Shown: positions 30,574 through 62,282, counted from the first letter of the stretch. The stretch: DNA of 64,000 bases from a virus (IMGVR_UViG_2913177423_000001:19415-83414), one strand, 5' to 3'. Numbers and translations are program-made. The notes: a model not told the origin generated them from the sequence alone.

Positions 30574-30596
30574 GGAAATCACAAACTGCACATAAT
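30574..30596 (+). promoter_or_regulatory. late-promoter-like box GGAAATCACAAACTGCACATAAT
   Basis: 20 of 23 positions identical to the box at 62260; family consensus is GAAATCACAAA, N6-7, then a -10-like hexamer. Confidence 0.55.
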
Positions 30597-30680
30597 CCAT
30601 CGCGCTAACGGCTCCCGTTGAAGGTTCTTTTGACGATTAACTTTCAGCCGAAGCGCGGTAGGGAGTCATAACGCCAAAGC

Positions 30681-30706
30681 AGGCCGCCATGTGCGGCCTT
30701 TTTTTG
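30681..30706 (+). terminator. intrinsic terminator between a late-promoter-like box and its first gene
   Basis: AGGCCGC-catgt-GCGGCCT followed by TTTTTTT; lies 27 nt before the ATG at 30733. Confidence 0.7.
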
Positions 30707-30732
30707 TATCCGTCATCCGTGGAGGAAGGACA

Positions 30733-31386
30733 ATGGAAAAGATCGCAATATTCAGCCTGACCACCAGCAAACCGCAAATGCTCACTGCAATACTGAAAGA
30801 CGGCGCTCTCGTGATTAACGAAGTAAAACCCCTTCCCGCGTCAGCATTGGAACAAAAGCAAAAAATTCCTCCAGCTATAGCAGCCCTGCGGAAAAGCAAA
30901 TTTAAGGTGCTGGTTGACGAAATTACGCCAACGATCTCCGCTGGCACCGGAGCAAGCCAGGTAACACTCAAGACACGTCATGCCGACGGCAGAGCTGCGA
31001 TCATCGTAGGGATGGAAAGATACAGAGAGCTAAAACTCCAGAAGCTATTATCCCTGCCGCAAAATAACAAAGGAGCTTTCGAAATCCCCGACTCCATCGT
31101 TGACACCGAATACAACGGTAACGGAGAAGAAGTCTACCGAGTGAACTGGCAGGATATCAGGCCGGAACATATTCTGATGATCCTGTGTTGCTACGCGACC
31201 GTATACCACAACGTTGCCAGCGCGGATTACGTGGAACAGATGACAGGCACAGTCGAGAAAGAGCACAAAACAGGCATCCTCGCTTCGTTCCTGTCCATTA
31301 TTGGGCATGAAAAGGTTAAAGCAGGCACCTCCCAGCCAAAGTCACTGGCTGGGAAAGAAGTTGATGAAGATACCGTGATACTTTGA
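30733..31386 (+). CDS. hypothetical late protein, 217 aa
   Basis: ATG preceded by GGAGGAAGGA; the track start at 30691 lies inside the terminator. Confidence 0.65.
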   Translation: MEKIAIFSLTTSKPQMLTAILKDGALVINEVKPLPASALEQKQKIPPAIAALRKSKFKVLVDEITPTISAGTGASQVTLKTRHADGRAAIIVGMERYRELKLQKLLSLPQNNKGAFEIPDSIVDTEYNGNGEEVYRVNWQDIRPEHILMILCCYATVYHNVASADYVEQMTGTVEKEHKTGILASFLSIIGHEKVKAGTSQPKSLAGKEVDEDTVIL

Positions 31387-31715
31387 TCACATCAGTAGCT
31401 TTGTTAACTCCCTCAATACCAGGTAGAAGAGTAACAAAAATACTGACGCCAGTATTTGCGTGGTCAATGAAGCGTTCATAAACAGATCAATTAGCATTAT
31501 TAATTCGAAAATAACATCCATGTCATTCGCTCAGTTTAATTTTTAATCTACTGCCAGTAAGTAATGAAGCTGGCCCCGCATAAAGATTAATGAAAGTCAC
31601 TTGTCACCAGTGAGGGGATTTATGAATCACATCTCCCTGAGCTGGTGGCCTGTCTGTTTCTCGCATTTCACACCCTGCATACAGTTTCCCCAGGTTATGA
31701 CTGAGGATTTTTGTT

Positions 31716-32045
31716 ATGGGCTATAGCAGACTCGACGATCGATACATTGAAGACGATATTCTGCGCGCACTGTTCCACCAGGAGATGATTAAACGGGTAT
31801 CGGAATATCACCCGGATAACTTCCAGTACACGATAAAAATTGATGAAGTCTATCGTTCAGACCTGGCTGCCTACCGGGCGTATGGGAACGCAGATTTACG
31901 CTGGGTATTCAGAGTGCTGGTGGGGCATGAATCAGAAATGGAAGAAATGCCCGCCGGGACCACGTTAACTCTCCCTGATGTGGCATGGCTGAGAAACAAG
32001 ATCCGTGATTATGCTGGCGCTGAACCGGAGATAAAAAATGCCTGA
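31716..32045 (+). CDS. hypothetical late protein, 109 aa
   Basis: ATG ORF; overlaps the next gene by 8 nt. Confidence 0.6.
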   Translation: MGYSRLDDRYIEDDILRALFHQEMIKRVSEYHPDNFQYTIKIDEVYRSDLAAYRAYGNADLRWVFRVLVGHESEMEEMPAGTTLTLPDVAWLRNKIRDYAGAEPEIKNA

Positions 32046-33234
32046 TTTCCTGAAAAACCAGGACGGGCGCTATATCACTGACGGCCTGTCCTCTAAGGAC
32101 TTCACGCGTATATTCGACCTTATCAGGAAAGAACAAACCCGTAAGCGCCGACAAGCTCACCGAACGCTTACACCTGGCAGACTGAGGAACAAATCCGCCG
32201 AAGATATTCTCAAGTTAGGGAAGAAGAAAGGCGGCACGTTCTTTACGCGAGACGATCTGAAAGGTTTCGAAAAGCTACGGAGTAAAACGCGCGAAAAATA
32301 TGACAGCAAGACGGCTGGCATTACATACGCCCAGCTGGTGGCGTCCAGCCAGGCTATCGATATTAAGCGTGCAAATAACGCCGTAGACGACGGTTCCGGT
32401 ATCAAAAGAGCTACGCCCGTATCTCTTCGCCACAACGTGATTAATATCCGCGTAGAAGCATCAGATATATCCGTCCACCAGCATCATATCGTCCGGATAC
32501 GCTTTGAAGAATGGGATCAGATGGTCGATGACATCGCAGAAGACGATAAATCAGCCCTGAAAGTCACTAAATCACTGTGTGCTGGGCGGGTATCTTTCGA
32601 TTGTGACTGTGGTCGTCATCAATACTGGTATCGTTACATCGCCACTGCGGGTAACTTTGCCCTGGCACCGCCAAAAGAATACGCCTATCCAAAAGTTCGC
32701 AACCCGAAGCTGCAAGGCGTCGCCTGTAAACACGTGATCCACTCAATGACGCGGTTACAGTCCGCCAGTTGGCAAATGAGTATTGCTCGTGCGCTACAAA
32801 AGGCTGCAACGCAAATTGCATTTGGTGACGATCGCCGCCGTACAACCAAACACTTCTCAAAAGAAGACGAGAAGGAGTTTAATCGCAATCGTAGCAGTAA
32901 AACGAACGTTGAAGCCGCCAAACGCGAATGGAGGCTCTATCAGAAACGCCAGGCCGCTTTAAGCACAAAACTGGCAAAGGACAACGGCAAGATTGACATG
33001 CTACGTGACCAGCTGACCAGGGCCAGAAAGTTGTCAGACGCACAGAAAAAACGAGCGGCAGCAAAAGAAGCGGCCTTGCAACGCGAGAAACAGAAAAACA
33101 AGGAGCTTCAGCAACGCCTTGCCGATCAGTTCGCACTGAAGAAGCAGGCGTTCATTGATGCGCTTGTCATGGCAGGAACGTCACCTGAGCAAGCTGAAAA
33201 AATGTTTATGGAGTATGTGAAGAAAGGTTCTTAA
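32038..33234 (+). CDS. SWIM-zinc-finger-like protein with basic coiled-coil tail
   Basis: CDCGRHQYWY...GVACKHVIH matches the CxC...CxH SWIM pattern; the C-terminus is Lys/Arg/Gln-rich coiled coil. Confidence 0.6.
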   Translation: MPDFLKNQDGRYITDGLSSKDFTRIFDLIRKEQTRKRRQAHRTLTPGRLRNKSAEDILKLGKKKGGTFFTRDDLKGFEKLRSKTREKYDSKTAGITYAQLVASSQAIDIKRANNAVDDGSGIKRATPVSLRHNVINIRVEASDISVHQHHIVRIRFEEWDQMVDDIAEDDKSALKVTKSLCAGRVSFDCDCGRHQYWYRYIATAGNFALAPPKEYAYPKVRNPKLQGVACKHVIHSMTRLQSASWQMSIARALQKAATQIAFGDDRRRTTKHFSKEDEKEFNRNRSSKTNVEAAKREWRLYQKRQAALSTKLAKDNGKIDMLRDQLTRARKLSDAQKKRAAAKEAALQREKQKNKELQQRLADQFALKKQAFIDALVMAGTSPEQAEKMFMEYVKKGS

Positions 33235-33267
33235 TTTACAACAAAGGCGGTTATCCCGCCTTTTATA

Positions 33268-34005
33268 TTACTTGTCCTTTGATGTCGATTGAGACTCATA
33301 TATTGCCTCTACGTCATCTATTAGTTTATTAATACCCCACAATCCAGTGTCTTTATAAAAATCGCTTTCTTCAATTGCTTTTAATAAATCGGCAAAATCT
33401 TCTTGGGTGGAAATTCTTTTCTTTTTTGCTTTATATACATCGACAATTACTTTTATGCCGTGATACAGAGCCACTCTGGCACTCTCAATCTCTCTCTTCT
33501 TCTCTTCAATTGCAGACAATAATTTATATTGATCTTCTGTTTGCTTTTCTAGACTTAAAAGCTTGTTCTCTTTTTGCTTCAGGTTGATCTGCAATTCTTT
33601 TATTCTTGCTCTCTCTTCTAAATCAAACTCATAGTCAATGTATCTGATTCTTGCATAGTTCCTCCCTGTTGCTTTTGATATACACATTGTTATATAAGGC
33701 ATTACCACTGACGCAGTGGTTCCATATATAAATGGCATAACAAAATGAGCCACAAACGGAGATACAACGATGGGACCAATATAAGGAAAGTGATATTTCT
33801 CGCCAACCCATACTATAGACAATGTTGTATATATATCGTACTTTGATTTAAATAAAATAATAATATCCTGCCAGTTAACGACAAAAAAAGAAACCACAAC
33901 ATATGCAAACAACTTATTAAATAACTTGTCTCTTATGGCTTCTTCGATTGTGTTCTTGACTGTGACATTTTCATCTTTATTTTCTAGTGATGAATCTTTG
34001 CTCAT
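33268..34005 (-). CDS. membrane-anchored coiled-coil protein on an AT-rich island; candidate exclusion/abortive-infection factor
   Basis: Three hydrophobic segments followed by heptad-rich LEERARIKELQINLKQKENKLLSLEKQTE. Visibly lower GC than its neighbours. Start could be the ATG at 34005 or the TTG at 34017. Confidence 0.6.
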   Translation of the reverse strand: MSKDSSLENKDENVTVKNTIEEAIRDKLFNKLFAYVVVSFFVVNWQDIIILFKSKYDIYTTLSIVWVGEKYHFPYIGPIVVSPFVAHFVMPFIYGTTASVVMPYITMCISKATGRNYARIRYIDYEFDLEERARIKELQINLKQKENKLLSLEKQTEDQYKLLSAIEEKKREIESARVALYHGIKVIVDVYKAKKKRISTQEDFADLLKAIEESDFYKDTGLWGINKLIDDVEAIYESQSTSKDK

Positions 34006-34066
34006 ATAAACAATCAAACCTTCTTATCTTTATTTTTGGTAAAGGCGGTCATCCAGACCGCCAAAC

Positions 34067-34426
34067 TCAAACACCAACCAGGCTTTCAAGAGGAATACCA
34101 AACTGGGAATGTAAACGACGAATCATAGGTAACGTCAAATTTCGTGTCCCATTAAGCACTTCGTAAACACGGTTTGACTTACCAATTGCCGGTTCCAGAT
34201 CCTTCACTGTCAGCCCTTGCTGTTCCATACGAAACTTAATGGCTTCAATAGGTGATGGTGGCTCTATTGGGTAATGCTTTTTCTCGTACTCTTCAATGAG
34301 CAGGCACATTACTTCAAAGAAATCGCCTTCCGGTGTGTTCATTTCCGGTTCGTTATCGAACATCGGTTCGACCGCACGCAGTGCGGCCTCATAATCTTGT
34401 TCTGTACGGATAGGTTTAATGTTCAT
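34067..34426 (-). CDS. higA: HigA antitoxin (XRE HTH)
   Basis: C-terminal GLTVKDLEPAIGKSNRVYEVLNGTRNLTLPMIRRLHSQFGIP resembles E. coli HigA; lies downstream of higB in the reversed TA order. Confidence 0.8.
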   Translation of the reverse strand: MNIKPIRTEQDYEAALRAVEPMFDNEPEMNTPEGDFFEVMCLLIEEYEKKHYPIEPPSPIEAIKFRMEQQGLTVKDLEPAIGKSNRVYEVLNGTRNLTLPMIRRLHSQFGIPLESLVGV

Positions 34427-34429
34427 GAT

Positions 34430-34732
34430 TTACTCCAGTTCTATTGTATCCGCTTCAATGGCATCGTATTCCTTATGTGTTCCAATAAACTTAACGAACA
34501 TCCATCCTCGCTGATAAGCAATTGCGACAATTAACCTGTAATCATTTCCCTTAATATTGAACACCACGCGCCTGTTTTTAAGGATGCTGGCTGTCCGGTA
34601 CTGTTCTTTGATCTCAGCCGGATTTTTCCAGTCAGCCTTTGTTGCTTCATCAACCCATGCCTTTAATGGCTGTTCTGCATCGGGATTCTTCGCCCAGAAA
34701 TCCCTTAGTGTTTTTACCGAAATTATTTTCAT
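34430..34732 (-). CDS. higB: HigB mRNA-interferase toxin
   Basis: MKIISVKTLRDFW...FNIKGNDYRLIVAI...GTHKEYD; GAAGGAA RBS before the ATG at 34732. Confidence 0.8.
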   Translation of the reverse strand: MKIISVKTLRDFWAKNPDAEQPLKAWVDEATKADWKNPAEIKEQYRTASILKNRRVVFNIKGNDYRLIVAIAYQRGWMFVKFIGTHKEYDAIEADTIELE

Positions 34733-34762
34733 CACAGATTCCTTCTCTCTGAAAGCAGAGTA

Positions 34763-34807
34763 GTCCCAATATGGGACAATGTAAAGCACTTTAGTCCCAT
34801 GCTGGGA
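34763..34807. promoter_or_regulatory. two palindromes upstream of higB (likely HigA operators)
   Basis: GTCCCAATATGGGAC (34763-34777) and TCCCATGCTGGGA (34795-34807). Confidence 0.55.
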
Positions 34808-34814
34808 TATGAAT

Positions 34815-34837
34815 TGAAATCACAATCTCCAGACAAT
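34815..34837 (+). promoter_or_regulatory. late-promoter-like box TGAAATCACAATCTCCAGACAAT
   Basis: Family member; its -10 overlaps the track ATG at 34836, which argues for a downstream start. Confidence 0.5.
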
Positions 34838-34877
34838 GCACCTTCGATACCTGATACATCGACCTTTGAGGATGCTT

Positions 34878-35669
34878 ATGGGCCGTTTTGACGAATGGTT
34901 TGCTGACGATGCAAACCTGGTAAGTAAGGAGTCAGAACATGACAGCACGCAGAGAGAAACGCCAGCGCCGATTGAAGAGGATGCAGGAGGCGCGCCGGAA
35001 CATGGCAATACCGGATCGGATTCATTCAGCATTCTGGAAGAGCAATCCACCGCCGAAGCTGATCGCCATGATAATTTCCCTGGTAGCGGCGGTAGTTTTA
35101 CTCCGGACACTGGAGAACCTGATATAGCCATTCTGCCATCTTCCCTGGCAGGCAGAGAACCAACTCCACAGCTAAAAACACGCTATAACGGGCATAAAGC
35201 CTTTAACGACCAGATCCGTGCTGACTGGATGTTAATTATTGAATCCAGCCCAGACGCGTTCCAGGCGCTCTTATACCGACCTGATGTCGGCACATATGGC
35301 GTGGTCAGCGACGAAACTGGAGAAGAGTCATTCACTGAACTGGATAACAACCAGCGCGAACTGACTTACCAGGAACCTGAAATCGTTTATGTGCTGGATA
35401 ACCCTGATGGGCGTGACTCTTTCCATGCTCTTGACTCAGACGGTGAGCAGGACGGTCTGACTGATGACGTCCTTATTCTGCGAATCGCCGCAAATAACGT
35501 ACCCGTCGGCTCAATTCTTGAGTGGAATGAAGAGATGGCAAATGGTGTAGCTCGCCGCTGGTGGTATGTACACCGTATTTTCAGTTACGGCACACAGCAT
35601 GTCGGCTCGCTTTACTACTGCATACCCGCAAGAAACTTTGATACGACTCAGAATGGGGTGATCGAGTAA
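34878..35669 (+). CDS. acidic late (virion/baseplate module) protein
   Basis: ATG at 34878 lies 6 nt after GAGG and downstream of the promoter box; TAATG overlap with the next gene. Confidence 0.6.
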   Translation: MGRFDEWFADDANLVSKESEHDSTQRETPAPIEEDAGGAPEHGNTGSDSFSILEEQSTAEADRHDNFPGSGGSFTPDTGEPDIAILPSSLAGREPTPQLKTRYNGHKAFNDQIRADWMLIIESSPDAFQALLYRPDVGTYGVVSDETGEESFTELDNNQRELTYQEPEIVYVLDNPDGRDSFHALDSDGEQDGLTDDVLILRIAANNVPVGSILEWNEEMANGVARRWWYVHRIFSYGTQHVGSLYYCIPARNFDTTQNGVIE

Positions 35670-36433
35670 TGTCAAACAATACCCTCCTGGCGCGGATCGG
35701 CGAATGGCAGACAACACGCACAGGGAAATTCCAGACTACTGGCCTTGAGAGCGTGGATAACGCGTTCGCTTCGCTCATTAGCAACATTTTTTCAGATATC
35801 TTGCTGGTGGAACCTACGCGAGAAGAAAAGCGTTTTGCATCGTTTCTGAATCGCCCACCAGCCGAACGTGTTTACGTGGCTCGTTTCGATAATGCTATTG
35901 AGTTTCTTAAAGCCGTGCGCCGCGCAAATGCCGGGCAAGGAAGAAAACCGGAAAACCAGAACATTAATCGCGATGCCTTGCCGTTGATCAACATCTCCCG
36001 GTCTATGGATATCAGCTATATCAATGATGATCAGCAGATAGACCGCAGGCAAACTGCCAGTTTTTGCAACCCGGATACTGGAATGCCTTTAGCGACTCTG
36101 GAATACACCCAGGCTATCCTGACTTATGACGTTACGTTAATGGCTACTGATAAAGCAACCATGAGTCTGATGTGTAATTCGCTGGGCGCGCGGCTCCGCC
36201 TGATGACCGGAACACAATTTGAGGCAAACACTAACCTGGTGCGTGTTCCTGTTCCTCTGATTTGCTCCATTCAGGATGCTAAAGACGTTGGATTTACGGA
36301 TGTTTCGGCACCCGTGGGAGAAGAGAGGATTTATGCTACTCAGGCACCTGTAAGCGTCATTGCGGATGTAATCACAGCCTGGGAATTGGACGCGAAACGC
36401 GTTGTTACTGAAACCTCGCTGGCTATGGGGTAA
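35669..36433 (+). CDS. late structural-module protein, 254 aa
   Basis: Translationally coupled within the baseplate gene block; no motif recognised. Confidence 0.6.
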   Translation: MSNNTLLARIGEWQTTRTGKFQTTGLESVDNAFASLISNIFSDILLVEPTREEKRFASFLNRPPAERVYVARFDNAIEFLKAVRRANAGQGRKPENQNINRDALPLINISRSMDISYINDDQQIDRRQTASFCNPDTGMPLATLEYTQAILTYDVTLMATDKATMSLMCNSLGARLRLMTGTQFEANTNLVRVPVPLICSIQDAKDVGFTDVSAPVGEERIYATQAPVSVIADVITAWELDAKRVVTETSLAMG

Positions 36434-36436
36434 TCA

Positions 36437-37417
36437 ATGTCCCAGGAGTTACAACAATACTTCCTCCAGTCAGTCACAATTAACGATAACAAAGTGCCAC
36501 GAGACTGGATTTTTACCGCAGTGTACGTGGAAAAGAGCAGCCTTAAAGCGCCGTTATTGAAGCTGGAAATTCATGACATGACAGGCACCATAATTGATGA
36601 CTGGAAAGCTAAATACGGTGCATCGCTGGTGGCTGAAATGGGCGATCCAAACGGTAATGCTGGCACTTTTAAAACAACTTTTTTTGTTACGTCAGCAATG
36701 CTGGCTGGGGATGTAGTTACCGTTATTGCGGTCAGTGAAGACGTGCATCGGTTTAAGATCCCCTCCCCTCGCACCAATCTACACACGAACAAAACGCCGG
36801 ACACCATATTCAAGGCGTATAGCGGCAATCTTAAAATTTCCAGCAGTGTCCTAAAGCGTGCGGTTACATATCACCTGAACGCAGGCGACAAGCCGTCAAA
36901 AATGCTCTCAGAGATAGCACGCGACAAAGGTGCATTGTGTTGGGTCTGCCGGGGAGAATTTAACTTTTACACCCTGGCTGATCTGATGAAGCAAACTCCA
37001 TCCTTCACCTACGAAGGTAATAATCCACAAGCGAAATACACCTTGTCAAAAATGCGCATGATTCAACAGGAACATGCGACAACAGCAAAGAATCAGTACC
37101 GTTTTGTGGGCTATTCCATGACTGATGGTTATATCGAATATGGCGATAGTTCCCTGCCTGTACGTTACATATCCGATTCCGATATGGAAACTCTTCGCAA
37201 TATGCAGCTGTCTCTCGTCCCCAAAATGGATATAGAAGTTGCAGGCAATCCGGATATAAAGCCAGGAATGCTGATAGAGATTCTTGTATACCGTTATGAT
37301 CAAGAAAACCGTATCGATGAATCAATGCCACGTAAGCTCATAGTGAAAAACGTCGCTCACTTTGAAGATCGTATAGGCTACACAACCAGAATGATATTAG
37401 GAGTGCCAAATAAGTGA
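36437..37417 (+). CDS. baseplate hub / gpD-like tail protein
   Basis: The size, position before the spike gene, and C-terminal ...VKNVAHFEDRIGYTTRMILG resemble P2 gpD-family ends. Confidence 0.5.
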   Translation: MSQELQQYFLQSVTINDNKVPRDWIFTAVYVEKSSLKAPLLKLEIHDMTGTIIDDWKAKYGASLVAEMGDPNGNAGTFKTTFFVTSAMLAGDVVTVIAVSEDVHRFKIPSPRTNLHTNKTPDTIFKAYSGNLKISSSVLKRAVTYHLNAGDKPSKMLSEIARDKGALCWVCRGEFNFYTLADLMKQTPSFTYEGNNPQAKYTLSKMRMIQQEHATTAKNQYRFVGYSMTDGYIEYGDSSLPVRYISDSDMETLRNMQLSLVPKMDIEVAGNPDIKPGMLIEILVYRYDQENRIDESMPRKLIVKNVAHFEDRIGYTTRMILGVPNK

Positions 37418-38067
37418 AGCGTAGAGCGCAGATAGTAGGAACCGAACACCCGGCAGGACTCATGCGCGCTCAGGTTCGAATTTTACCTGACTGGAATGGA
37501 GTTCCCGACGATGATCTCCCCTGGGCAGAATACCAGTTACCCATAGGTAACGCGTTTGTACCTACAGTAAAAGGCGACCTGGTATGGGTAGAGTTTCCTT
37601 ATCTGGATGTTAATGGTCGAATTGATACCAGACGCCCAATGATAGTTGGCGCGGCTCAGGATGCGCCTGGTGGAGTACCAAACGTCGCGCCGGAGGCGTC
37701 AGGCAATGGTAGCGGCTGGACGCCACCTGAAGTAGACGGAGCGCCTCCCCGCCCGCAATTTTCGGCGACAAAAGATTTCGTTATTCACCGCAACAATGTG
37801 CTCGAAGTGCGAACGGTTGGCGGTGGATATGAAATAGCGAATACGGCAGCAGGCTCAAGGATAGGAATGAATGAATCAGGGCAGATATACATCATTGGCC
37901 CGGCTGATGTAGTAGTGAATGCGGGAGGGAGTGTTAACGTCAAATCAGCCGATAACATCAGCGTTAATGGCAAAAACATTTCTGTGACAGCCGACGAAAA
38001 TATTGATTTCAAGGCAGGAGGCACCTTCCAGGCTATCGCAAGCAACTTTGATTTCAAGAAGGGATAG
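37414..38067 (+). CDS. baseplate spike (gpV / Mu gp45-like)
   Basis: N-terminal OB-like GDLVWVEFPYLD...PMIVGA, then a repetitive beta-helix-like tail (VVNAGGSVNVKSADNISVNGKNISVTADENIDFKAGG). Confidence 0.65.
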   Translation: MKRRAQIVGTEHPAGLMRAQVRILPDWNGVPDDDLPWAEYQLPIGNAFVPTVKGDLVWVEFPYLDVNGRIDTRRPMIVGAAQDAPGGVPNVAPEASGNGSGWTPPEVDGAPPRPQFSATKDFVIHRNNVLEVRTVGGGYEIANTAAGSRIGMNESGQIYIIGPADVVVNAGGSVNVKSADNISVNGKNISVTADENIDFKAGGTFQAIASNFDFKKG

Positions 38068-38077
38068 AAAACACATC

Positions 38078-38120
38078 CAATTGTGTTAGATAATTGAATA
38101 GAATTTTCTAACACAATTGG
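38078..38120. promoter_or_regulatory. 43-bp palindrome containing an inverted pair of operator-like 17-mers
   Basis: CCAATTGTGTTAGATAATTGAATAGAATTTTCTAACACAATTGG, located 7 nt upstream of rdgC. Confidence 0.65.
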
Positions 38121-38126
38121 TGAAAC

Positions 38127-39032
38127 ATGAGATCTGTCGCTTTCAAAAACATCTTCATCTATCGTCTTTCACGTGAAGTTAACTGGAGTGCCGCAGAAGT
38201 ATCCGATGCTCTTAGCAAATTCGTGTTTACTCCTTGCGGTTCTCAGGACACAGCTAAAGTCGGTTGGACACCTGTTCTTGGTGACAACCTCACCCATGAA
38301 TACCAGGGTTTTCTGCTAATACAGCATAAGCGAGAAGAAAAAATTCTCCCTTCGCAGGTGCTCAAGGAAGAGTTGCAGAAAAAAGTCCTGAAACTCGAAG
38401 AAGAGCAAGCACGCAAGCTGAAGAAAACGGAAAGAGACAGTCTTAAAGATGAAGTCCTGCATTCCCTTTTGCCTCGCGCGTTCACGAGAAAATCACTCGC
38501 CAAAATCCTGATCGACCGCAGCAACCATCTGGTATTCGTTGAGGCAAGCAGCGCCAAAAAGGCAGAGGATCAGCTGGCTTTATTGCGAAAATCGCTCGGC
38601 AGCCTGCCCGTCATTCCATTCACACCACGCGAACCGCTGGAAATCACAATGACCGAGTGGTTTAAAAACGGCTTCCCTGCCGGATTCACAGCAGGTGAAG
38701 ATGCCACATTAAAGGCTCTGTTTGATGATGGTGGTGCCGTTCGCTGCAACAAAGTTGATCTACAGTCCGACGAGATTATGTCTCACATTGAGGCGGGGAA
38801 AGTAGCTACGACCGTTGCAATTAACTGGATGGACCGCGCGTCGTTCAGAGTAAACGATGATATGAGTATCAAAGCCCTGACATTCTGTGATGATCTCTAT
38901 GACCAGAATGACGATATCGACCGGGAGGATGTAGCACAACGATTTGATGCTGATTTCGTGCTCTTTACGGGCGAATTATCTGCACTGTTTAACGCGCTGG
39001 TGGAGGCCATTGGCGGTGAAGCAGAACGATAA
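38127..39032 (+). CDS. rdgC: RdgC recombination-associated protein
   Basis: Colinear with E. coli RdgC as remembered ([67 protein letters not shown]). Confidence 0.9.
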
Positions 39033-39048
39033 TAACCGACCGCTTGTT

Positions 39049-39696
39049 GTGAGTGTGTGTGATTTTACGGGGGGAATGGTTGCCCCCTGGCTGGAATACG
39101 GTGTCGATGCCGCTATCGTCGATCCACAGCACTTATCGACCAGTGACGAGCTGATGCAATCAGGTGCCGTTCTGACGCGTATTAGTGCGATCATCGATAG
39201 CGATGAAGTATACGCTTTTCTCCGTAAGAATTTGCAGCGCATCGTGTTTCTGGCCGGGTTCCCACCGTGTACTGACCTGGCTGTTTCCGGCGCGCGCTGG
39301 TTTTCGGACAAGGCTAATAAAGATCCGGTCTTCCAGTTCAAAGCAATGCAGGTTGTCTGGCAGTGTTATGACATTGCAAAGATGATCGGTTGTCCGTACA
39401 TGATTGAAAATCCGGTCAGCAAAATATCGACATTCTGGCGTAAGCCAGATCACATCTTTCACCCTTACTTCTTCACTGCATATTGTCAGGAAGATAACTA
39501 CACCAAAAAAACATGCCTCTGGAGCGGCCAGGGCTTTGTCATGCCTGATGCCCTAATGGACGAATCATTAGGCAAGCCAGATAACAGAATCCATGCCGCG
39601 CCACCAGGGCCTGACAGGGCTAATTTTAGAAGTGCTACTCCACATGGATTCGCAAAGGCAGTTTTCGAAGCGAATAAGGGGGTGCTCTATGAGTAA
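39049..39696 (+). CDS. C5-cytosine-methyltransferase-like protein (short)
   Basis: CDFTGGM (motif I-like), GFPPCTDLAVSG (motif IV, PC dipeptide) and MIENPV (motif VI, ENV). GTG start chosen just after the rdgC stop; start uncertain. Confidence 0.6.
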   Translation: MSVCDFTGGMVAPWLEYGVDAAIVDPQHLSTSDELMQSGAVLTRISAIIDSDEVYAFLRKNLQRIVFLAGFPPCTDLAVSGARWFSDKANKDPVFQFKAMQVVWQCYDIAKMIGCPYMIENPVSKISTFWRKPDHIFHPYFFTAYCQEDNYTKKTCLWSGQGFVMPDALMDESLGKPDNRIHAAPPGPDRANFRSATPHGFAKAVFEANKGVLYE

Positions 39697-40594
39697 ATCT
39701 ATAGCAAGCATAGCCATAGAAAAACGGGATACGATGGCTGAAATTAGCTATATGCGCACCATTCGGACTCCGGATGAATATGAGCGTCCGATCTTCAAAT
39801 GGGTAGGTGGTAAATTCTCAGAATTGCCTACAGTGCTTGAGCATCTACCACACGGCAAGCGGTTAATAGAACCGTTCGTTGGTGGCGGTTCCGTATTTAC
39901 GAATGCAGGATTTCGCCACAACCTGCTTAATGATATTAACGGTGACCTGATTAACTTCTATCAGACATTGCAGCGGGAAGGACATTCGCTCGTCACGCTG
40001 TCATATAGTTTTTTCAAAAATTACAACAACGCTGACGCTTACCTCGAAGTGCGTGAGGCATTTAACAGAGGAAAGTATGACCAGCTACATCATGCTGCCG
40101 CCTTTTTGTACCTTAATCGGCACTGTTTTAATGGCGTAACACGGTACAACCAAAATGGCGATTTCAACGTGGGGTATGGCAAATACAAAGCGCCCTACTT
40201 CCCACATGCAGAGATGGAGGCGTTTTTGGCTGATGACGTACTCAAAAACACATCCTTTGTATCAGGTGACTTTGCTGGCGTCATCGAGGCGGCTGGTGAA
40301 GACGATGTGATTTTTTGCGATCCGCCGTATGAACCGCTGCCGGATACAGAGGGATTTACCAGCTATTCAGGAAATAGCTTCCGTTTCGATGAACAAAAAA
40401 GGCTTGTATCACTGTTGGTGGCTGCCCACCAGCGCGGCGCGAAGGTAGTGATAACAAACAGTGGCGCGCCCAAAATTCGCGAATTGTACGAAAGAAACGG
40501 TTTTAAGCTGTACCACATGCCAGCCAGACGGTCCGTGTCATGCAAAGCATCCACGCGAATAGTCGCTAACGATATCATTGCAACGCTCAAATAG
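39689..40594 (+). CDS. dam: Dam-type N6-adenine DNA methyltransferase
   Basis: FKWVGGK, EPFVGGGSV and DPPY motifs; its ATG overlaps the upstream stop. Confidence 0.9.
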   Translation: MSKSIASIAIEKRDTMAEISYMRTIRTPDEYERPIFKWVGGKFSELPTVLEHLPHGKRLIEPFVGGGSVFTNAGFRHNLLNDINGDLINFYQTLQREGHSLVTLSYSFFKNYNNADAYLEVREAFNRGKYDQLHHAAAFLYLNRHCFNGVTRYNQNGDFNVGYGKYKAPYFPHAEMEAFLADDVLKNTSFVSGDFAGVIEAAGEDDVIFCDPPYEPLPDTEGFTSYSGNSFRFDEQKRLVSLLVAAHQRGAKVVITNSGAPKIRELYERNGFKLYHMPARRSVSCKASTRIVANDIIATLK

Positions 40595-40595
40595 A

Positions 40596-40617
40596 AAAAG
40601 CCCCAGGCGGGGCTTTT
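40596..40617 (+). terminator. intrinsic terminator
   Basis: AGCCCC-aggc-GGGGCT followed by TTT. Confidence 0.7.
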
Positions 40618-40661
40618 GATGCCGATACAGTGTCAATTTGATATCAATATGGTTGTATATT

Positions 40662-40720
40662 AACACCATTACGGCACCACTTTGACACCATTATTGCACC
40701 GGTACATGATAGACACCAAT
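40662..40720. repeat. RCACCA repeat cluster downstream of the ParA/RHH operon
   Basis: aaCACCAtt, ggCACCAct, gaCACCAtt, tgCACCggt and gaCACCAat at roughly helical spacing. Confidence 0.5.
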
Positions 40721-40737
40721 GAGGCATCAAATCGGTA

Positions 40738-41022
40738 TCATTTTGCATCCTCTGACTCAGCAAGCATGAGGATGGCATGTCGAATCAGGTTCAATTTGCT
40801 GCGGTTAAGCTTTTTGCTTAACGCATCGAGCACCCCGTACTCATATTCATTAAAGCTCACGCGTATGGATTTAAAGTCACGCGGCGCATCTTTATCTGGA
40901 GTTTGAGTTGCAGCCTCAACGCCCGGCACCAAATCGGCTTTAATGGCGAACTCTTCAATGCGGCGCTCTAGTTCAGGGTCTTTTACAGCTTGTGCATTCA
41001 CTGGCTCACGGCGCTTAATCAC
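40738..41022 (-). CDS. ribbon-helix-helix partition/centromere-binding protein (ParG-like)
   Basis: C-terminal RVSFNEYEYGVLDALSKKLNRSKLNLIRHAILML is RHH-like; overlaps the parA stop. Confidence 0.65.
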   Translation of the reverse strand: MIKRREPVNAQAVKDPELERRIEEFAIKADLVPGVEAATQTPDKDAPRDFKSIRVSFNEYEYGVLDALSKKLNRSKLNLIRHAILMLAESEDAK

Positions 41023-41651
41023 GATAACAACTCCTTAATCAACATCTGGATCTCGCCCTTTGCTTTCCCGTTGTCCATTTCAACAACACCCTTCCCTTCT
41101 GCCATGCAGTCACGATAAATCTTACGGTCACGGACGACAGTTTTCAGGAGTTCAAGTTGCGGGTATTCAGCAAGATATTCCCTTGCCTCATTGGCTTCGT
41201 TAACGACCGGGTTGGATGGTGCCATAGTCAGCATGGCATACGCCTTAAGTTTAGGGTTGAAATCCATCGCCTCAGCTATAACCTCAACAAGGTGCGGTAG
41301 AGTATCCAGATCCGGCTGGGAAGGACGGAACGGCACCAGAAGCACATCTGCCGCTGTCATGCCTGTACGCATCTCACGACTGTCGCGACCAGCAGTATCG
41401 ACGACAACGTACTCGTAACGTTTATCCAGATCGAGCAGCGTCTCACGAATATTATCGAACTTCTGCACGCAGTGAATGACAGGGGCAACCTCACCTGCAT
41501 TACGGTCTGACGCCCATCGAGCTGCCGTTCCCTGTTTATCAGCATCAATCAAGACGACATCTTTGTTTTTTCGGGCCAGCTCGGCACAAATATTGACGCT
41601 GGTGGTTGACTTGCCACAGCCTCCCTTTTGACTTGCTACCAGGATAATCAT
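41019..41651 (-). CDS. parA: small ParA-family partition ATPase (type Ib, ParF-like)
   Basis: Deviant Walker A SQKGGCGKST; 210 aa with no N-terminal HTH. Confidence 0.85.
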   Translation of the reverse strand: MIILVASQKGGCGKSTTSVNICAELARKNKDVVLIDADKQGTAARWASDRNAGEVAPVIHCVQKFDNIRETLLDLDKRYEYVVVDTAGRDSREMRTGMTAADVLLVPFRPSQPDLDTLPHLVEVIAEAMDFNPKLKAYAMLTMAPSNPVVNEANEAREYLAEYPQLELLKTVVRDRKIYRDCMAEGKGVVEMDNGKAKGEIQMLIKELLS

Positions 41652-41727
41652 GTCCGCACCTCGGCTTTATTACGGCTCTATTTTCACACTAAAACAGTAC
41701 CGATTTAACACATCAACGGTACAGCAA

Positions 41728-41890
41728 TAGCACCATTCTTAATGCCAGGAGTATAACATCAAATCCGATGGATACTGGTACACGTTTTGCGCCTGAATAG
41801 CACTAAATTAGCACCAAATATGCACCAGTACATTAACAACACCAATTCGGCGTTGTTTTGGTGCCACTTCAACACCATTTTGACACCAAA
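41728..41890. repeat. RCACCA repeat cluster upstream of parA (candidate centromere/operator)
   Basis: agCACCAtt, agCACCAaa, tgCACCAgt, aaCACCAat, inverted GGTGcc, aaCACCAtt, gaCACCAaa. Confidence 0.55.
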
Positions 41891-41897
41891 ACTGAAC

Positions 41898-41922
41898 AAA
41901 AAAGGCTGCAATTTGCAGCCTT
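41898..41922 (-). terminator. intrinsic terminator of the parMR operon
   Basis: On the minus strand: AAGGCTGCA-aat-TGCAGCCTT followed by TTTTT. Confidence 0.75.
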
Positions 41923-41940
41923 AAGATAGTGTATGAACCG

Positions 41941-42285
41941 TCAATCAGGTAGAGAGTCAGCCAGATTGCGCGCCGACGCGCTTTTGGCAACAACTTGCTC
42001 CTTCACTGGCTCAATGGAGGCAGGTCGCTCTTCAACCGCAGCAGGTAGTTCCAGGAAGGACGCCAGCATTTTTCGGATCAGATCCGGGTTATTGTCTTCG
42101 GTTAGCAGGGAAGCCAGTAATCCTGGAAGCCTGCTATCGACTTCTCCCAGCGCAAGCCCTGCCAACAATGCAGTTCTTGCCATATCGCTATGTTTTTTTA
42201 TCTTCTCGCTCGCCGCCTTTTCATTGGCATAAGCCTCTGGGCGAAGATAAATCATCACTTTCTTACGTTCCTGAGACATGGACAT
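41941..42285 (-). CDS. parR: ParR-like centromere-binding protein
   Basis: Small RHH-like N-terminus (KKVMIYLRPEAY) directly downstream of parM. Confidence 0.6.
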   Translation of the reverse strand: MSMSQERKKVMIYLRPEAYANEKAASEKIKKHSDMARTALLAGLALGEVDSRLPGLLASLLTEDNNPDLIRKMLASFLELPAAVEERPASIEPVKEQVVAKSASARNLADSLPD

Positions 42286-42291
42286 ACCTCG

Positions 42292-43248
42292 TTAACCGAT
42301 TGCTTTCAGGCCATGAACAAGAGCAAGTTGCGGGTCATCCGCCACGAAGAAACGGTCATCGCGAATATTAACTTGCTCGCGAATTGCATCAGCCACCAGT
42401 GGTGCGCCGCCACCGATCACCATGACATGCGTATATCCTTTAAAGTCGCCAATCACATCAAGAACGCGGGTACGCAGACGGTCAATACTTGCAGCAATGG
42501 CCTTTTTCACATCACCAATAGCTGATGGGTCATTGATATTGTCGTTCAGATAATCTTCATCGTGGCGGTTAATAATGAGCTGATCGACATTGTAATTTGA
42601 CGTTTCGGTATTGGCTCTGGCAAGTGCTTGCCTTACTTCCCTGGTAACCAGAGAGACGCCAAGATTCGAATCGCCAAAAACACGGGAAACTGCCGTCATT
42701 TGCCCGGCGACCATTGAAACATCAAGGGTAGTTCCACCCAAATCGACGATAAGAACAGAGTGGGCAGGGTTCAGATTGTCGCACAGGCCAATTCCTGCCG
42801 GAATAGACTCCGGGCGTACCGTAACTTTCTTAATCGTGAACACATTGCCTTTATTCAGCGTGACGGGGCGCATAAGGCTGGCTTTTTTGCGCTCGATGTT
42901 ATCGAGATTGTATTGCGCGTCGTCGTCGTAAAACTCCGCCAGAGGCAGCGTGACCACGATTTCTACTTCCTGCGGCTCAATGCCACTGGTCAGCAAAGCA
43001 TGGTGAACAGCCAGGACGTTAAGCGGGCTGTATTGCCATTCCACGTTATTCGTCGGCAGAACATCTGGCGAGATCAAATCATACGAATACTTTTCGTCGT
43101 CAATGACATAGTTAAACGGCTTGCCAGCACCAAATGTTGCGGACCAGCCGCGCTTAAAGCTGTTAGGACTGATGTGCGTGCGAGTTTCCCCGTCGTGTTC
43201 CCACAGCATTTTGATATTTGTTGAACCATCGTCGATAAAAATGCGCAT
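42292..43248 (-). CDS. parM: ParM actin-like segregation ATPase
   Basis: MRIFIDDGSTNIKMLW matches the ParM/StbA N-terminus. The ATG at 43248 follows GGAG with 8-nt spacing. Confidence 0.85.
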   Translation of the reverse strand: MRIFIDDGSTNIKMLWEHDGETRTHISPNSFKRGWSATFGAGKPFNYVIDDEKYSYDLISPDVLPTNNVEWQYSPLNVLAVHHALLTSGIEPQEVEIVVTLPLAEFYDDDAQYNLDNIERKKASLMRPVTLNKGNVFTIKKVTVRPESIPAGIGLCDNLNPAHSVLIVDLGGTTLDVSMVAGQMTAVSRVFGDSNLGVSLVTREVRQALARANTETSNYNVDQLIINRHDEDYLNDNINDPSAIGDVKKAIAASIDRLRTRVLDVIGDFKGYTHVMVIGGGAPLVADAIREQVNIRDDRFFVADDPQLALVHGLKAIG

Positions 43249-43272
43249 CTTCTTGCTCCACTTCTGAGACAC

Positions 43273-43430
43273 ATTTGAGAATCAAATCATGATTTTAAAA
43301 GAGAAGGAATCGAAAATCCACACAATTCGAGATGAAAGAGAGTCGTTATTGAGATTATTTTGAGAATATCTTTAACCACTTTCTGGGTTTGATGCAAAGG
43401 TGAGAACAATTCGAGAATAAAACGAGAATT
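43273..43430. repeat. parC-like iteron array (YGAGAAT words, partly at 11-bp phase)
   Basis: TGAGAAT 43276, CGAGATG 43328, TGAGATT 43350, TGAGAAT 43361, TGAGAAC 43401, CGAGAAT 43412, CGAGAAT 43423. Confidence 0.6.
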
Positions 43431-43449
43431 TTAAATATTTCGTGATTTC
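43428..43449 (-). promoter_or_regulatory. late-promoter-like box on the minus strand (GAAATCACGAAATATTTAAAAT)
   Basis: Matches the family spacing with a TAAAAT -10; points through parC towards parM. Confidence 0.3.
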
Positions 43450-43466
43450 ACTCTCTCTTTGAGTGA

Positions 43467-43489
43467 CGAAATAACAAAGTGATGACAAT
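43467..43489 (+). promoter_or_regulatory. late-promoter-like box CGAAATAACAAAGTGATGACAAT
   Basis: Family member 25 nt upstream of the PAAR gene. Confidence 0.5.
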
Positions 43490-43513
43490 AGGCGAATAAC
43501 CAGGAGATGAAGA

Positions 43514-43798
43514 ATGAGCGCAATAGCCACCAGCGACACACTTTGTTCCGGTCACGGAGGATTCCCGCCGCGGCTGGTTGCTGAAACCGTTCCCTGGTTC
43601 ACCGTCAACGGTAAGCCAGTTGTTGTGGATGGTGCCATGTTCCCCAGCCATACAGACGGTAACAGCACACATCCGGGATCGGCTGTATCGACGCGGGCAT
43701 GGTATTCAATAGGTGGAAAGGGAGTCGTCTGCGTAGGCGATCCGCTTTCTTGTGGTTCTGTTATCGCCAACGGCGAGGATATTTTTCAGGTCGCATAA
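43514..43798 (+). CDS. PAAR-domain spike-tip protein
   Basis: CSGHGG...VNGKPVVVDGAMFPSH...H...IGGKGVVCVGDPLSCG fits the PAAR repeat pattern. Confidence 0.75.
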   Translation: MSAIATSDTLCSGHGGFPPRLVAETVPWFTVNGKPVVVDGAMFPSHTDGNSTHPGSAVSTRAWYSIGGKGVVCVGDPLSCGSVIANGEDIFQVA

Positions 43799-44601: not shown

Positions 44602-44656
44602 CAGCACCACTTAGGCACATAAACGGATGTAAATTGGTACATGTTTAACACCAAAA

Positions 44657-45742: not shown

Positions 45743-45756
45743 TTTTTCCTGCCTGT

Positions 45757-46149: not shown

Positions 46150-46163
46150 AACCGTAATGATTT

Positions 46164-46180
46164 ATGTTAGAAAATTAAAA
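46164..46180 (+). promoter_or_regulatory. operator-like 17-mer ATGTTAGAAAATTAAAA
   Basis: Word-family member in the divergent region between the 45757 operon and the head-like gene. Confidence 0.5.
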
Positions 46181-54868: not shown

Positions 54869-54891
54869 CGAAATCACACACTCCCTATCCT
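54869..54891 (+). promoter_or_regulatory. late-promoter-like box CGAAATCACACACTCCCTATCCT
   Basis: Family member 39 nt upstream of the 54930 gene. Confidence 0.45.
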
Positions 54892-59561: not shown

Positions 59562-59941
59562 TGCTGATGCTTTACGAAATAGACGCAAGACTTCAAACGA
59601 ATGAGAGTGGCGTCATTATTGCAGAGGGTAGTAACGCTACCTGGATGGCCCGCCTTGACGAGTGGCTACGAACCCCCGAAGGGAGCGTTTATGGCTTACC
59701 GTCATGGGGAAACCCAATGGAAGAGTTTAAGCACGAACCATTCGGTTCTGAAACTTCGCACATAGTTGAAGTGGCTATCGAAGGGAGAATGATGACAAAA
59801 CTACGACAAGACCTGCCCGGTTTAGATGTGCAGGGGATTCGCTGTACATCCATTTCTGAAGATTCTTTATTAATCAGTTTTTATGCGAAAGGGGGGAGCA
59901 TGGATATTGTTATGCAGAAATCAAGCGAGGTGGGTGCGTGA
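59561..59941 (+). CDS. gp25/gpW-like baseplate wedge protein
   Basis: 126 aa with the pattern ...G..YGLPSWGNP......IVEVAIEGRMMTKLRQDLPGL.V; ATGA-type couplings on both sides. Confidence 0.55.
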   Translation: MLMLYEIDARLQTNESGVIIAEGSNATWMARLDEWLRTPEGSVYGLPSWGNPMEEFKHEPFGSETSHIVEVAIEGRMMTKLRQDLPGLDVQGIRCTSISEDSLLISFYAKGGSMDIVMQKSSEVGA

Positions 59942-61368
59942 CGATTACCGAATTACTCGACAAATTTAATACCAAGCTGAATGAAAACCCCTGGTGGTCA
60001 CGTTTTGTAAACAGTCAGTTTGTACAGATGCAGGCGGTGTTCGGTGCGCAGGTGATTTATATTGCGCGCACATTTGCAAGTCGCGCTCTGACCGAGGGAT
60101 TTATTTCAACGGCCACACGGAGAGCAAGCATTTTAGCGGGAGCTGAAGACCGCAGTTACGTCGGGCGATTTGTGAGTGCTTCATACGGCACAATTTCGAT
60201 AACGAATAAAACAGATCGGGATATAACGTTGCCTGCGGGAGCAGAGTTGCTTGCCAGCGACCAAACGCCACTTGCAATTATTAACAGTGTTATTGTTCCT
60301 GCCGGGGGAGCTGTTCACGGTGTTGAAACCAAACAGCATGAAGCCGTGAGCGTGACATTTGATGTTGAAAAAGAAACCGCCTTTCTTACGCTGTTGCTTT
60401 CCAGGGAACTGACAAAAGAAGTGTCCAGCCTCGATGTTACTGTGATTATTAATGGTGCAGAAGAGAAATGGACCTACAACCCATTATTTCGAATGTCCAG
60501 AGACAAGAGCAAACACTATGTATTGGCATATAAGCCAACGGAACAACTTGGCGTCAAATTTGGTGATGGTTCTATGGGGATGATGCCGCCAGCTGGGTGC
60601 CAGGTGCGAATTGATGTAATGGCAAGTCTCGGTGACTACACTTTGGCTGAAGGACAAAAGTTAGAACCTGCTGGAAATATTGCTCAATATGTAGAGTCAC
60701 TGGAAATTAAAACCGATTCGATTATTACCGGAGGCGGTGGAATGGAAACCACAGAAGAAACCCGAAACCGTGCACAGTATTATGTTGCATACGATGAACA
60801 AGTCGTATGGGGAGGTGATTATCGTCAATTCATCCAGAACGTGGTACACGGCACGTCATGGCTTAACGTTTGGGGGGAAGCGTTACAAGAAAAAATAACC
60901 GGATTTGATGTGCGCAACATCAATAAGATTTTCTTTTGTGGGCATAAGCCGGGCGTAAGCCAGGAACAACTAAAGTCAGAAATACTTAAAGCCCTGGAGA
61001 ATGTGCCAAACGAATTGAACAAGCGGTTCGAATATGTGGACACAAATGAGCAGCCATTTACTATAACTTTCACAGGCATTGCACGTAAAAACGTTCTGAT
61101 AGATGACGCTAAAAACGCCATTAGAAAGGCGTTAGAGGATAATTTTGGTCGTGATTCGTCTTCATTTAGTTTGTTGTTACAGAGCGATGATGATTCCCAG
61201 CAATGCTATGCGCAGGTAAAAGTTAAAGACATTTGGCGCGTTATAGAATCACTGGATATGTTTCTCTCTTACGATATTACAACACAGAATATGAAGGATG
61301 CTGTTTACTTCAATGACTTTATATACCTTGACGTAAATTCATCTACCTTCAGTATTTCCTATCCGTAA
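59938..61368 (+). CDS. baseplate J-like protein
   Basis: 476 aa immediately after the gp25-like gene, the conserved myovirus order. Confidence 0.55.
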   Translation: MTITELLDKFNTKLNENPWWSRFVNSQFVQMQAVFGAQVIYIARTFASRALTEGFISTATRRASILAGAEDRSYVGRFVSASYGTISITNKTDRDITLPAGAELLASDQTPLAIINSVIVPAGGAVHGVETKQHEAVSVTFDVEKETAFLTLLLSRELTKEVSSLDVTVIINGAEEKWTYNPLFRMSRDKSKHYVLAYKPTEQLGVKFGDGSMGMMPPAGCQVRIDVMASLGDYTLAEGQKLEPAGNIAQYVESLEIKTDSIITGGGGMETTEETRNRAQYYVAYDEQVVWGGDYRQFIQNVVHGTSWLNVWGEALQEKITGFDVRNINKIFFCGHKPGVSQEQLKSEILKALENVPNELNKRFEYVDTNEQPFTITFTGIARKNVLIDDAKNAIRKALEDNFGRDSSSFSLLLQSDDDSQQCYAQVKVKDIWRVIESLDMFLSYDITTQNMKDAVYFNDFIYLDVNSSTFSISYP

Positions 61369-61378
61369 TGAGGCTGAA

Positions 61379-62224
61379 ATGAAAGAGAATTGGTTTAAGG
61401 AGCGGTTAACTAAAGCAAAACAGGATTCTAAGCTCTGGAGCGCCTTCATAGGCGCTTTACAGGACGTCTGGGATGAAGCTGTAGAACCGATATTAACCAG
61501 AATAAGTAACAGAAAATCATTCTTCACGATGGCAAGTGAAGATATGGATACTCGTATCGCGGAATACGGGCGCTTTTTCGTTATTACCGAAAAAGATAAG
61601 ACCCGTAGACCAATGCTTCTGGCCCAACGTTTAGATGAAGTGCATTTTAAAGGAACTCTCCGCCCGATTGAGCAGACGTTCTGGCGTGAATTCGGCACAA
61701 TCCCTGTAACATGGGAGCCTCTTTACGCCCCCGTAGATTTAGAAAAGCATCCCTATGGTTCGTATTTTGCTACAGCAATTGAGATACCTACAGCGCAGGC
61801 CCAATTTGGAGAATTCTTTCTAACATCACGAGGGCTGGTTGTTGTTGATCAGAATAAGCTCTATCGCTCATATGGCGAGTATAATAAAGGTACGGCAGTA
61901 CAGAAATTATTAGCAGATTTTGAAACAGTAATCGCGCCTTTGTTACCGCTGCATATTGTTTTTGATGGAGTGTCCTTCCAGCTTAGTGCTGTATTCCCTG
62001 AAGTGGCAGAAATACTAAATTGCTTGTCTACGGACGTTTCGGTAATTGAAGGTGTTTATGTTACTGATAGTATGACTGATATGCTATCCCGTAGTGATAA
62101 CTCCTGCCAGGTAGACAATATTTCGCTTGATGCTATTCCGAACAGAACGGCAGAAAAGCAACTACATCTTGATATAATCCCACTAGATGCCTGGCCTTTA
62201 GATTACCACCTTCAGCCTGTTTGA
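61379..62224 (+). CDS. baseplate/tail protein (gpI-position)
   Basis: Position after the J-like gene and before the fibre genes. Confidence 0.5.
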   Translation: MKENWFKERLTKAKQDSKLWSAFIGALQDVWDEAVEPILTRISNRKSFFTMASEDMDTRIAEYGRFFVITEKDKTRRPMLLAQRLDEVHFKGTLRPIEQTFWREFGTIPVTWEPLYAPVDLEKHPYGSYFATAIEIPTAQAQFGEFFLTSRGLVVVDQNKLYRSYGEYNKGTAVQKLLADFETVIAPLLPLHIVFDGVSFQLSAVFPEVAEILNCLSTDVSVIEGVYVTDSMTDMLSRSDNSCQVDNISLDAIPNRTAEKQLHLDIIPLDAWPLDYHLQPV

Positions 62225-62259
62225 TAATTCTTCCCCCGGGCGTGCGGGGGAAGAACAAC

Positions 62260-62282
62260 GGAAATCACAAACTGAGCATACT
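62260..62282 (+). promoter_or_regulatory. late-promoter-like box GGAAATCACAAACTGAGCATACT
   Basis: Family member following the hairpin CTTCCCCC...GGGGGAAG (62230-62253); 39 nt upstream of the gene at 62321. Confidence 0.55.

Follow-up and report, generated by a model that had tools for sequence, protein, structure and literature searches.

Candidate late promoters with a diverged activator box in a D6-like, P1-related plasmid prophage

The Lpa protein of phage P1 is a sequence-specific DNA-binding activator that acts together with the host protein SspA (PMC1891329), and the repeat present in P1 late promoters has been described as its binding site (PMC10695390). The 11 annotated late promoters of P1 (LPs, LPsit, LP23, LPmat, LPdar, LPlyz, LPpro, LP26, LPpmgL, LPpac and LPhot) align as AACAAGTGACTT-N4-TAnAAT, that is, a 9 base pair (bp) '-22 region', a spacer of 4 nucleotides (nt) and a -10 hexamer. 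Phage D6 is distantly related to P1, and its prophage takes the form of a circular plasmid. Here we analyse a stretch of 64,000 nt of viral DNA (IMGVR_UViG_2913177423_000001:19415-83414, referred to throughout as the window) that belongs to a D6-like, P1-related plasmid prophage with about 91% identity to phage D6, and in which a 23 bp motif recurs in front of six gene blocks. From sequence comparison we consider it likely that these six sites serve a D6-type phage-plasmid as late promoters, built like the activator-dependent promoters of P1 but with a box that has diverged together with Lpa.

The six 23-mers, proposed in a preliminary description of this DNA as a candidate late promoter motif, were all recovered at their positions on the plus strand, and were scored with a matrix derived from the six sites. 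They were compared with the complete D6 genome and with two more distant relatives, plasmids of Enterobacter hormaechei (NZ_CP085744, which encodes an Lpa of the D6 clade) and Citrobacter freundii (NZ_CP114569); a scan of species-representative genomes for Lpa gave four loci, and complete plasmids were taken for the comparison. Candidate late promoter 1 (30574-30596; 29.4 bits) consists of the box GAAATCACAAACT at 30575-30587 and the -10 hexamer CATAAT at 30591-30596; it is identical in D6 and is followed by a 136-nt leader before the mat homologue (start 30733). Candidate late promoter 2 (34815-34837, TGAAATCACAATCTCCAGACAAT; 25.4 bits) lies upstream of the tail and baseplate genes 7-24-6-5, with gene 7 starting at 34878 according to the D6 annotation, and its box is retained in D6, Enterobacter and Citrobacter although the flanking sequences differ. 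Candidate late promoter 3 (43467-43489, CGAAATAACAAAGTGATGACAAT; 24.9 bits) precedes upfC, which codes for a PAAR-like protein (start 43514), and upfB; it is identical in D6, and the Citrobacter counterpart is 30 nt from upfC. Candidate late promoter 4 (46236-46258, CTAAATCACAAAGTTGGTATTGT; 21.8 bits), in which TGG stands ahead of the hexamer, is upstream of the major capsid gene 23 (start 46308) and of the block formed by 23, the sheath gene 22, 21, pmgG, bplB, pmgC and tub, and is the positional equivalent of P1 LP23. Candidate late promoter 5 (54869-54891, CGAAATCACACACTCCCTATCCT; 25.0 bits) precedes pmgB (start 54930), sit, pmgA, bplA and 16, and is retained in D6, Enterobacter and Citrobacter. 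Candidate late promoter 6 (62260-62282, GGAAATCACAAACTGAGCATACT; 28.5 bits) occupies the gap between gene 16 and R, upstream of the tail-fibre genes R (start 62321) and S; it is identical in D6 and sits in the same place as P1 LPs.

The six sites score between 21.8 and 29.4 bits and the next-best match only 18.5 bits, while 1.6e-3 matches of at least 21.8 bits are expected by chance on both strands of 64 kilobases (kb). For the 11-mer GAAATCACAAA, with one mismatch at most, we count 10 occurrences where 2.3 are expected, a number reached in none of 100 shuffles. Aligned without gaps, the six copies read n-GAAATCACAAA-(C/G)T-N3-nAnnnT (nGAAATCACAAAsT-N3-nAnnnT), so that the spacing is fixed; the distance between the 11-mer and the hexamer is 5 nt in every copy and not the 6-7 nt first proposed, and the box is two bases longer than was noted originally, ending in (C/G)T. 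Similarity among the copies stops at the borders of the 23-mer. The -10-like hexamer previously ascribed to each site is present (CATAAT, GACAAT, GACAAT, TATTGT, TATCCT and CATACT), with an A at position 2 and a T at position 6 in all six. The reported lack of a -35 element also holds, in that a sigma-70 consensus scan of positions 30000-48000 calls no -35/-10 promoter at the four sites that it covers. The only sequence resembling an extended -10 element is the TGn at 46236, and there is no -35 to make the hexamers self-sufficient.

All six sites are non-coding when the D6 gene starts are applied, and with those starts the gap between hexamer and start codon is 136 nt for mat, 40 nt for gene 7, 24 nt for upfC, 49 nt for gene 23, and 38 nt each for pmgB and R. 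For five of the sites the setting is a divergent intergenic region from which a plus-strand late block begins; the sixth is between gene 16 and R. The boxes had been placed 25-140 nt upstream of structural gene blocks; the strand and the association with late blocks stand, at 24-136 nt, but mat is concerned with control of maturation and is not structural. By homology to D6 and P1, the genes downstream have virion and maturation functions. Positions that are both non-coding and no more than 140 nt upstream of a gene on the same strand make up about 3.8% of strand positions, which gives about 3e-9 for all six sites to fall among them, the latter being a rough estimate from mechanical open reading frame (ORF) calls. 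Rfam returned no match at the boxes, and elsewhere in the window matched only C4, isrK and three tRNAs.

The motif extends beyond the window, as a scan of the complete D6 genome shows. Its 11 top matches, all correctly oriented, are the orthologues of the six sites and five sites in the part of the genome outside the window, located upstream of the peptidoglycan hydrolase gene (lysin, orf16), the lydA holin gene, the portal gene, darB and ddrB. The set of D6 operons that carry the box is also the set driven by the 11 annotated late promoters of P1. In the Enterobacter and Citrobacter plasmids, box and hexamer are found at a nearly equal distance from the orthologous gene starts while the surrounding intergenic DNA has diverged. 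In the window, D6, Enterobacter and Citrobacter, respectively, this distance is 136, 136, 130 and 129 nt for mat, 40, 41, 37 and 39 nt for gene 7, 49, 49, 49 and 52 nt for gene 23, and 38, 38, 34 and 30 nt for pmgB; distances are similarly conserved for the lysin, lydA, portal and darB promoters. The ungapped consensus of 35 sites is nnAAAtcACAnACTnnntAnnnT, with the core form AAAtcACAnACT-N4-A-N3-T, in which the ACA of the box and the A and T of the hexamer are essentially invariant.

The overall likeness to P1 is considerable. Both systems have a -10 element without a -35, a box at a fixed spacing upstream of it, about 11 copies per genome and an Lpa-family gene adjoining pacA, and they serve orthologous operons (mat, 23, the sit block, R/S, lysis and portal). 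As had been proposed, the box occupies the position of the P1 element; counted from the first hexamer base, it runs from -16 to -4 and the P1 box from -13 to -5. The sequences nonetheless differ. The box described here, of 12-13 bp, is AAATCACAAACT, with the core ACAnAC, and is non-palindromic, whereas the P1 box, AAGTGACTT, is a 9 bp inverted repeat; the gap to the hexamer is 3 nt rather than the 4 nt of P1, and the box reaches further upstream. We find no enrichment of the P1 box in the window, where it occurs 13 times with up to one mismatch and 15 occurrences are expected, and the P1-derived matrix finds no match in the Enterobacter and Citrobacter plasmids. A P1-type -22 box was accordingly discarded as the late signal here, the lone strong matrix site (31584-31605, minus strand) being unrelated to the six.

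Other late systems offer more general parallels. Phages Mu and P2/P4 use activators (C in Mu, Ogr and Delta in P2/P4) that are unrelated to Lpa and have sites further upstream, at about -35 to -55, and we know of no SspA co-activator for them. The likeness lies in weak sigma-70 promoters whose -35 is poor or lacking altogether and in a small phage-encoded DNA-binding activator (for Mu C, PMC4461284). In Francisella, the SspA/MglA PigR model has a DNA-bound activator that is thought to act through an RNA-polymerase-associated protein of the SspA family, and cites P1 Lpa as a precedent (PMC1891329). The Francisella system differs in controlling a host virulence regulon, and its DNA-binding protein and sites are unrelated.

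The presumed activator is encoded at 7635-8027 (plus strand), by a gene of 130 codons whose stop codon overlaps the start of pacA (8024). Its earlier assignment as lpa, made from its position, is borne out by matches to Pfam PF25716 (BPP1_LPA; E = 6.7e-55) and PHROG 1704 (E = 1.2e-58) and by its place immediately ahead of pacA; in the D6 record the orthologue is labelled lpa-like. The product shares about 26-31% identity with P1 Lpa, and the Citrobacter Lpa is 36-38% identical to it, depending on the alignment. Lpa homologues in a large protein collection fall into three clades, a D6-type, a Citrobacter/Leclercia/Atlantibacter-type and a P1-type. An AlphaFold model built from 28 sequences (mean predicted local distance difference test score, pLDDT, 88.9) has three helices, a beta-hairpin wing and a long C-terminal helix, and the protein is thus predicted to be of the winged helix-turn-helix type; every one of the nearest solved folds is that of a winged-helix regulator (Fur, PadR/LmrR, MarR-type and forkhead). 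The predicted recognition helix, helix 3 (residues 40-52), reads VTN(I/V)(I/V)RxF in the D6 and Citrobacter clades, which have the box core ACAnAC in common, and VYLRLKxI in the P1 clade, where the box is AAGTGACTT. In these models the type of recognition helix tracks the type of box across the clades, and this agreement is the best indirect support for a box that is read by Lpa.

We also note that the N-terminal part of Lpa is found fused to KilAC antirepressor domains (PF03374 with PF25716, in proteins P0053, P0063 and P0064), and that residues 1-79 of P1 Lpa also match the antirepressor Ant family (PHROG 63). These sequence relationships hint that the winged-helix module of Lpa may be common to antirepressors.

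Because the hexamer nAnnnT is weak and a -35 is missing, the host sigma-70 polymerase alone should use these sites poorly. A plausible scenario is that derepression of the prophage would lead to synthesis of the Lpa homologue, whose predicted recognition helix (around residues 40-52) would bind the box; together with the host RNA-polymerase-associated SspA, it would then recruit or activate the sigma-70 polymerase, with transcription starting some 6-8 nt past the hexamer. This would switch on the operons for maturation, head, tail, baseplate and tail fibres and, outside the window, the lysis, portal and anti-restriction genes. For this scheme we infer the binding of the box by Lpa, the requirement for SspA, and the transcript starts and their timing.

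The proposal that these are late promoters is thus upheld by a motif that is non-random and non-coding, lies ahead of late genes and is kept at orthologous positions in four lineages. Several points weigh against it. The sites of the other lineages in the set of 35 are the best matrix match in each upstream region, and their agreement is therefore partly circular. Since those sites had been chosen with the matrix, we ran a matrix-free test that compares 6-mers in the 110 nt upstream of late operons with random windows of the same genome. ATCACA was recovered in 8 of 11 regions of D6 (p = 2e-10), CAGACT and ATCACA in Enterobacter, and ACAGAC and TATCCT in Citrobacter, and in P1, the positive control, the test recovered the known words ACAAGT and GTGACT; the concern over circularity is lessened by these results. 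Another such point is the weakness of the Foldseek matches of the Lpa model (E = 3e-3 to 5e-2), and a third is that the box is asymmetric, unlike the P1 inverted repeat, where a dimer of a PadR-like winged-helix protein would normally be expected to have a symmetric site. Finally, in the lineages of D6 and Enterobacter no late box is conserved ahead of pacA and pacB. The genes lpa, pacA and pacB (7635-10896, plus strand) overlap end to end, and a possible late promoter for them at 7582-7604 (AGAAATAACATTCTCATTATCAT; 16.2 bits) was rejected, its box being degraded in D6 and absent from the Enterobacter plasmid. Since neither this site nor any pacA/pacB box is conserved, the motif does not cover every late function, and the terminase genes of the D6 lineage seem, from these comparisons, to be without a late promoter of their own. 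This differs from P1, which has LPpac, and from the Citrobacter plasmid, in which a box stands ahead of a separate pacA.

The missing symmetry bears on the identity of the protein that reads the box. It would fit a box that is recognized by some other phage or host factor, or an Lpa that works through RNA polymerase and SspA without contacting the box, because symmetry is what a dimeric winged-helix protein leads one to expect. Against this, no late activator other than Lpa is known in this phage family and the window encodes a homologue, the predicted recognition helix changes between clades exactly with the box, and the P1 repeat has been described as the Lpa-binding site (PMC10695390; PMC1891329), all of which makes another reader of the box improbable. 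A different role for the box, as an operator through which a C1-like immunity repressor or another protein silences the late operons in the lysogen while the hexamers work independently of an activator, draws on the P1 C1 operators that adjoin some late-gene promoters, for example Omat and O26, and on the overlap of the box with the region that would be covered by polymerase. The hexamers, however, have neither the -35 nor (apart from the TGn at 46236) the extended -10 that would make them self-sufficient, and the strict orientation, the fixed spacing to the hexamer and the correspondence in place with the P1 activator box all speak for activation, so that an operator function seems very unlikely to us. 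The C1 operator of P1 itself has no match in the window at up to three mismatches, and was discarded as an identity for the box.

It is also conceivable that the motif has nothing to do with promoters, and represents duplicated intergenic cassettes or a site for partition, replication or packaging, given that several copies adjoin plasmid-maintenance genes and that a partial inverted copy (43428-43450, minus strand) beside the third site faces stbA/parM. We regard this as the least credible of the explanations and give it hardly any weight: the similarity between copies is confined to the 23-mer, all of them share the orientation of late genes that begin 24-136 nt downstream, none of 35 sites departs from the A and T of the hexamer, and the box is kept in four lineages while its flanks diverge. 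Even taken jointly, the three explanations just set out are unlikely, though together they retain some weight, and late promoters activated by Lpa remain the interpretation that we favour. This interpretation amounts to a form of the known Lpa late-promoter system in which both the box and the activator have diverged. The D6 GenBank records annotate no promoter, and our literature search found no paper naming both phage D6 or 'D6-like' and either Lpa or late promoters, although an earlier description of the box is possible.

Divergence of the Lpa system has given rise to at least two box specificities, perhaps three, and as these track a single predicted recognition helix they provide a natural set of activators and promoters from which a specificity code might be derived, and with which cross-talk between co-resident P1-like and D6-like prophages is directly testable. 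Together the sites map the regulation of the late programme in the D6-group phage-plasmids, which are common in Escherichia coli, Salmonella and Shigella; PLSDB holds more than 100 plasmids with this type of Lpa. The sites are of use in annotation, in designing induction reporters and in choosing orthogonal parts for late expression. The understanding of late transcription in the phage family is unchanged.

Among the weaker matches, a candidate seventh site at 31663-31685 (plus strand, GCATTTCACACCCTGCATACAGT) scores just 11.4 bits but is placed 30 nt ahead of the gene 26 homologue (start 31716). It shows no variation among five D6-like variants, and at the same place the Enterobacter plasmid has a good box, ATAAATCACAGACTACTGACAAT. 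The remaining matches were rejected as promoters. Those at 38640 and 44801 are intragenic and without a -10 hexamer, and those at 4998-5020 and 26759-26781 (both minus strand) have defective hexamers and no counterpart listed by the D6 genome scan. The inverted copy at 43428-43450 has a score of just 11.8 bits; this partial box (TGAAATCACGAAATATTTAAAAT), 17 nt upstream of candidate late promoter 3 and facing the stbA/parM partition genes, may be due to chance or be a component of partition-site repeats. The TCACA within the box resembles a half-site for CRP, but there is no partner half-site, as judged by eye, and the position near -22 is unsuitable.

In the leader that follows candidate late promoter 1 (30597-30733, plus strand), a structured part of about 105 nt ends in a terminator hairpin at 30681-30699 followed by a T run, which is the top-scoring intrinsic terminator of the region and lies upstream of the mat ribosome-binding site. 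Both sequence and fold are kept in the window, D6, Enterobacter and Citrobacter, although there is no match to an Rfam family. P1 is without this leader, its LPmat being 20 nt from the mat start. This leader may act as a late small RNA, or as an attenuator at which antitermination is required.

Two further promoters are of the other phage's type. The D6 lineage has a perfect P1-consensus late promoter, GACAAGTGACTT-TCAT-TAATCT, at 31584-31605 (minus strand) in the window and at 71093-71114 (plus strand) in D6 (MF356679). It scores 22.3 bits with the P1-derived matrix, for which about 2e-3 matches are expected by chance, and is the only strong P1-type site in the window. It points away from gene 26 and is about 60 nt upstream of a hydrophobic ORF of 44 residues (D6 orf77, PHROG 38362) that is convergent with mat. 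Five D6-like variants carry this site without change, and about 100 D6-like plasmids contain the segment around it; past the box itself, the region has no DNA homology to P1. Reciprocally, P1 (NC_005856) has a perfect D6-type site, GGAAATCACAAAGTACATACCGT, at 31571-31593 (minus strand), with the holin homologue lydC starting 38 nt downstream (22.2 bits; 1.6e-3 expected). This 23-mer is present exactly in 28 IMG/VR contigs, several of which have a P1-like length (90-103 kb), and the P1 record annotates no lydC promoter on that strand. We considered whether P1 LydC is a transferred D6-type holin, but it is no nearer to D6 LydA than P1 LydA is. Each of the two cross-type promoters is conserved inside its own lineage; they may be relics, may reflect cross-talk or may have a function. 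One could imagine that the P1-type and D6-type pairs of activator and box are mutually specific and that each phage keeps one promoter of the other type before a small membrane protein as a sensor, a notion that we think has little chance of being right; if true, the cross-type promoters would fire on superinfection by, or induction of, the related phage in the same cell and bring about exclusion, or abortive or coordinated lysis.

The wider context of the window is that of D6. For a 20 kb part, the sole match in the phage collection is Escherichia phage D6, with 91% identity over 85% of the length and in reversed orientation, and the closest plasmid to the window is CP042620.1, at about 95% identity. 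The gene order, as judged by homology to D6 and P1, begins with ulx/pmgM/pmgS, followed by lpa-pacA-pacB, c1 and a recombinase gene. Then come a long minus-strand early block, the immunity region, mat, 26-25, 7-24-6-5, the partition genes and upfC-upfB, and finally 23-22-21-pmgG-bplB-pmgC-tub, a replication gene, pmgB-sit-pmgA-bplA-16 and R-S.

The Rfam matches fall in two places. In the immunity region there is an isrK-like Hfq-binding RNA (27295-27374, plus strand; 61 bits) with an antirepressor gene downstream, and a C4 antisense RNA (27398-27485, plus strand; 73.7 bits) lies directly 3' of the isrK-like RNA and ahead of that gene. The three tRNA genes, all on the plus strand, are Arg-TCT (4398-4474), Thr-TGT (4479-4554) and Met-CAT (6027-6102), whereas the D6 record has Ser?, Thr and Asn tRNAs, on the strand equivalent to the minus strand of the window. 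This difference between the window and D6 suggests a mosaic exchange at the tRNA segment.

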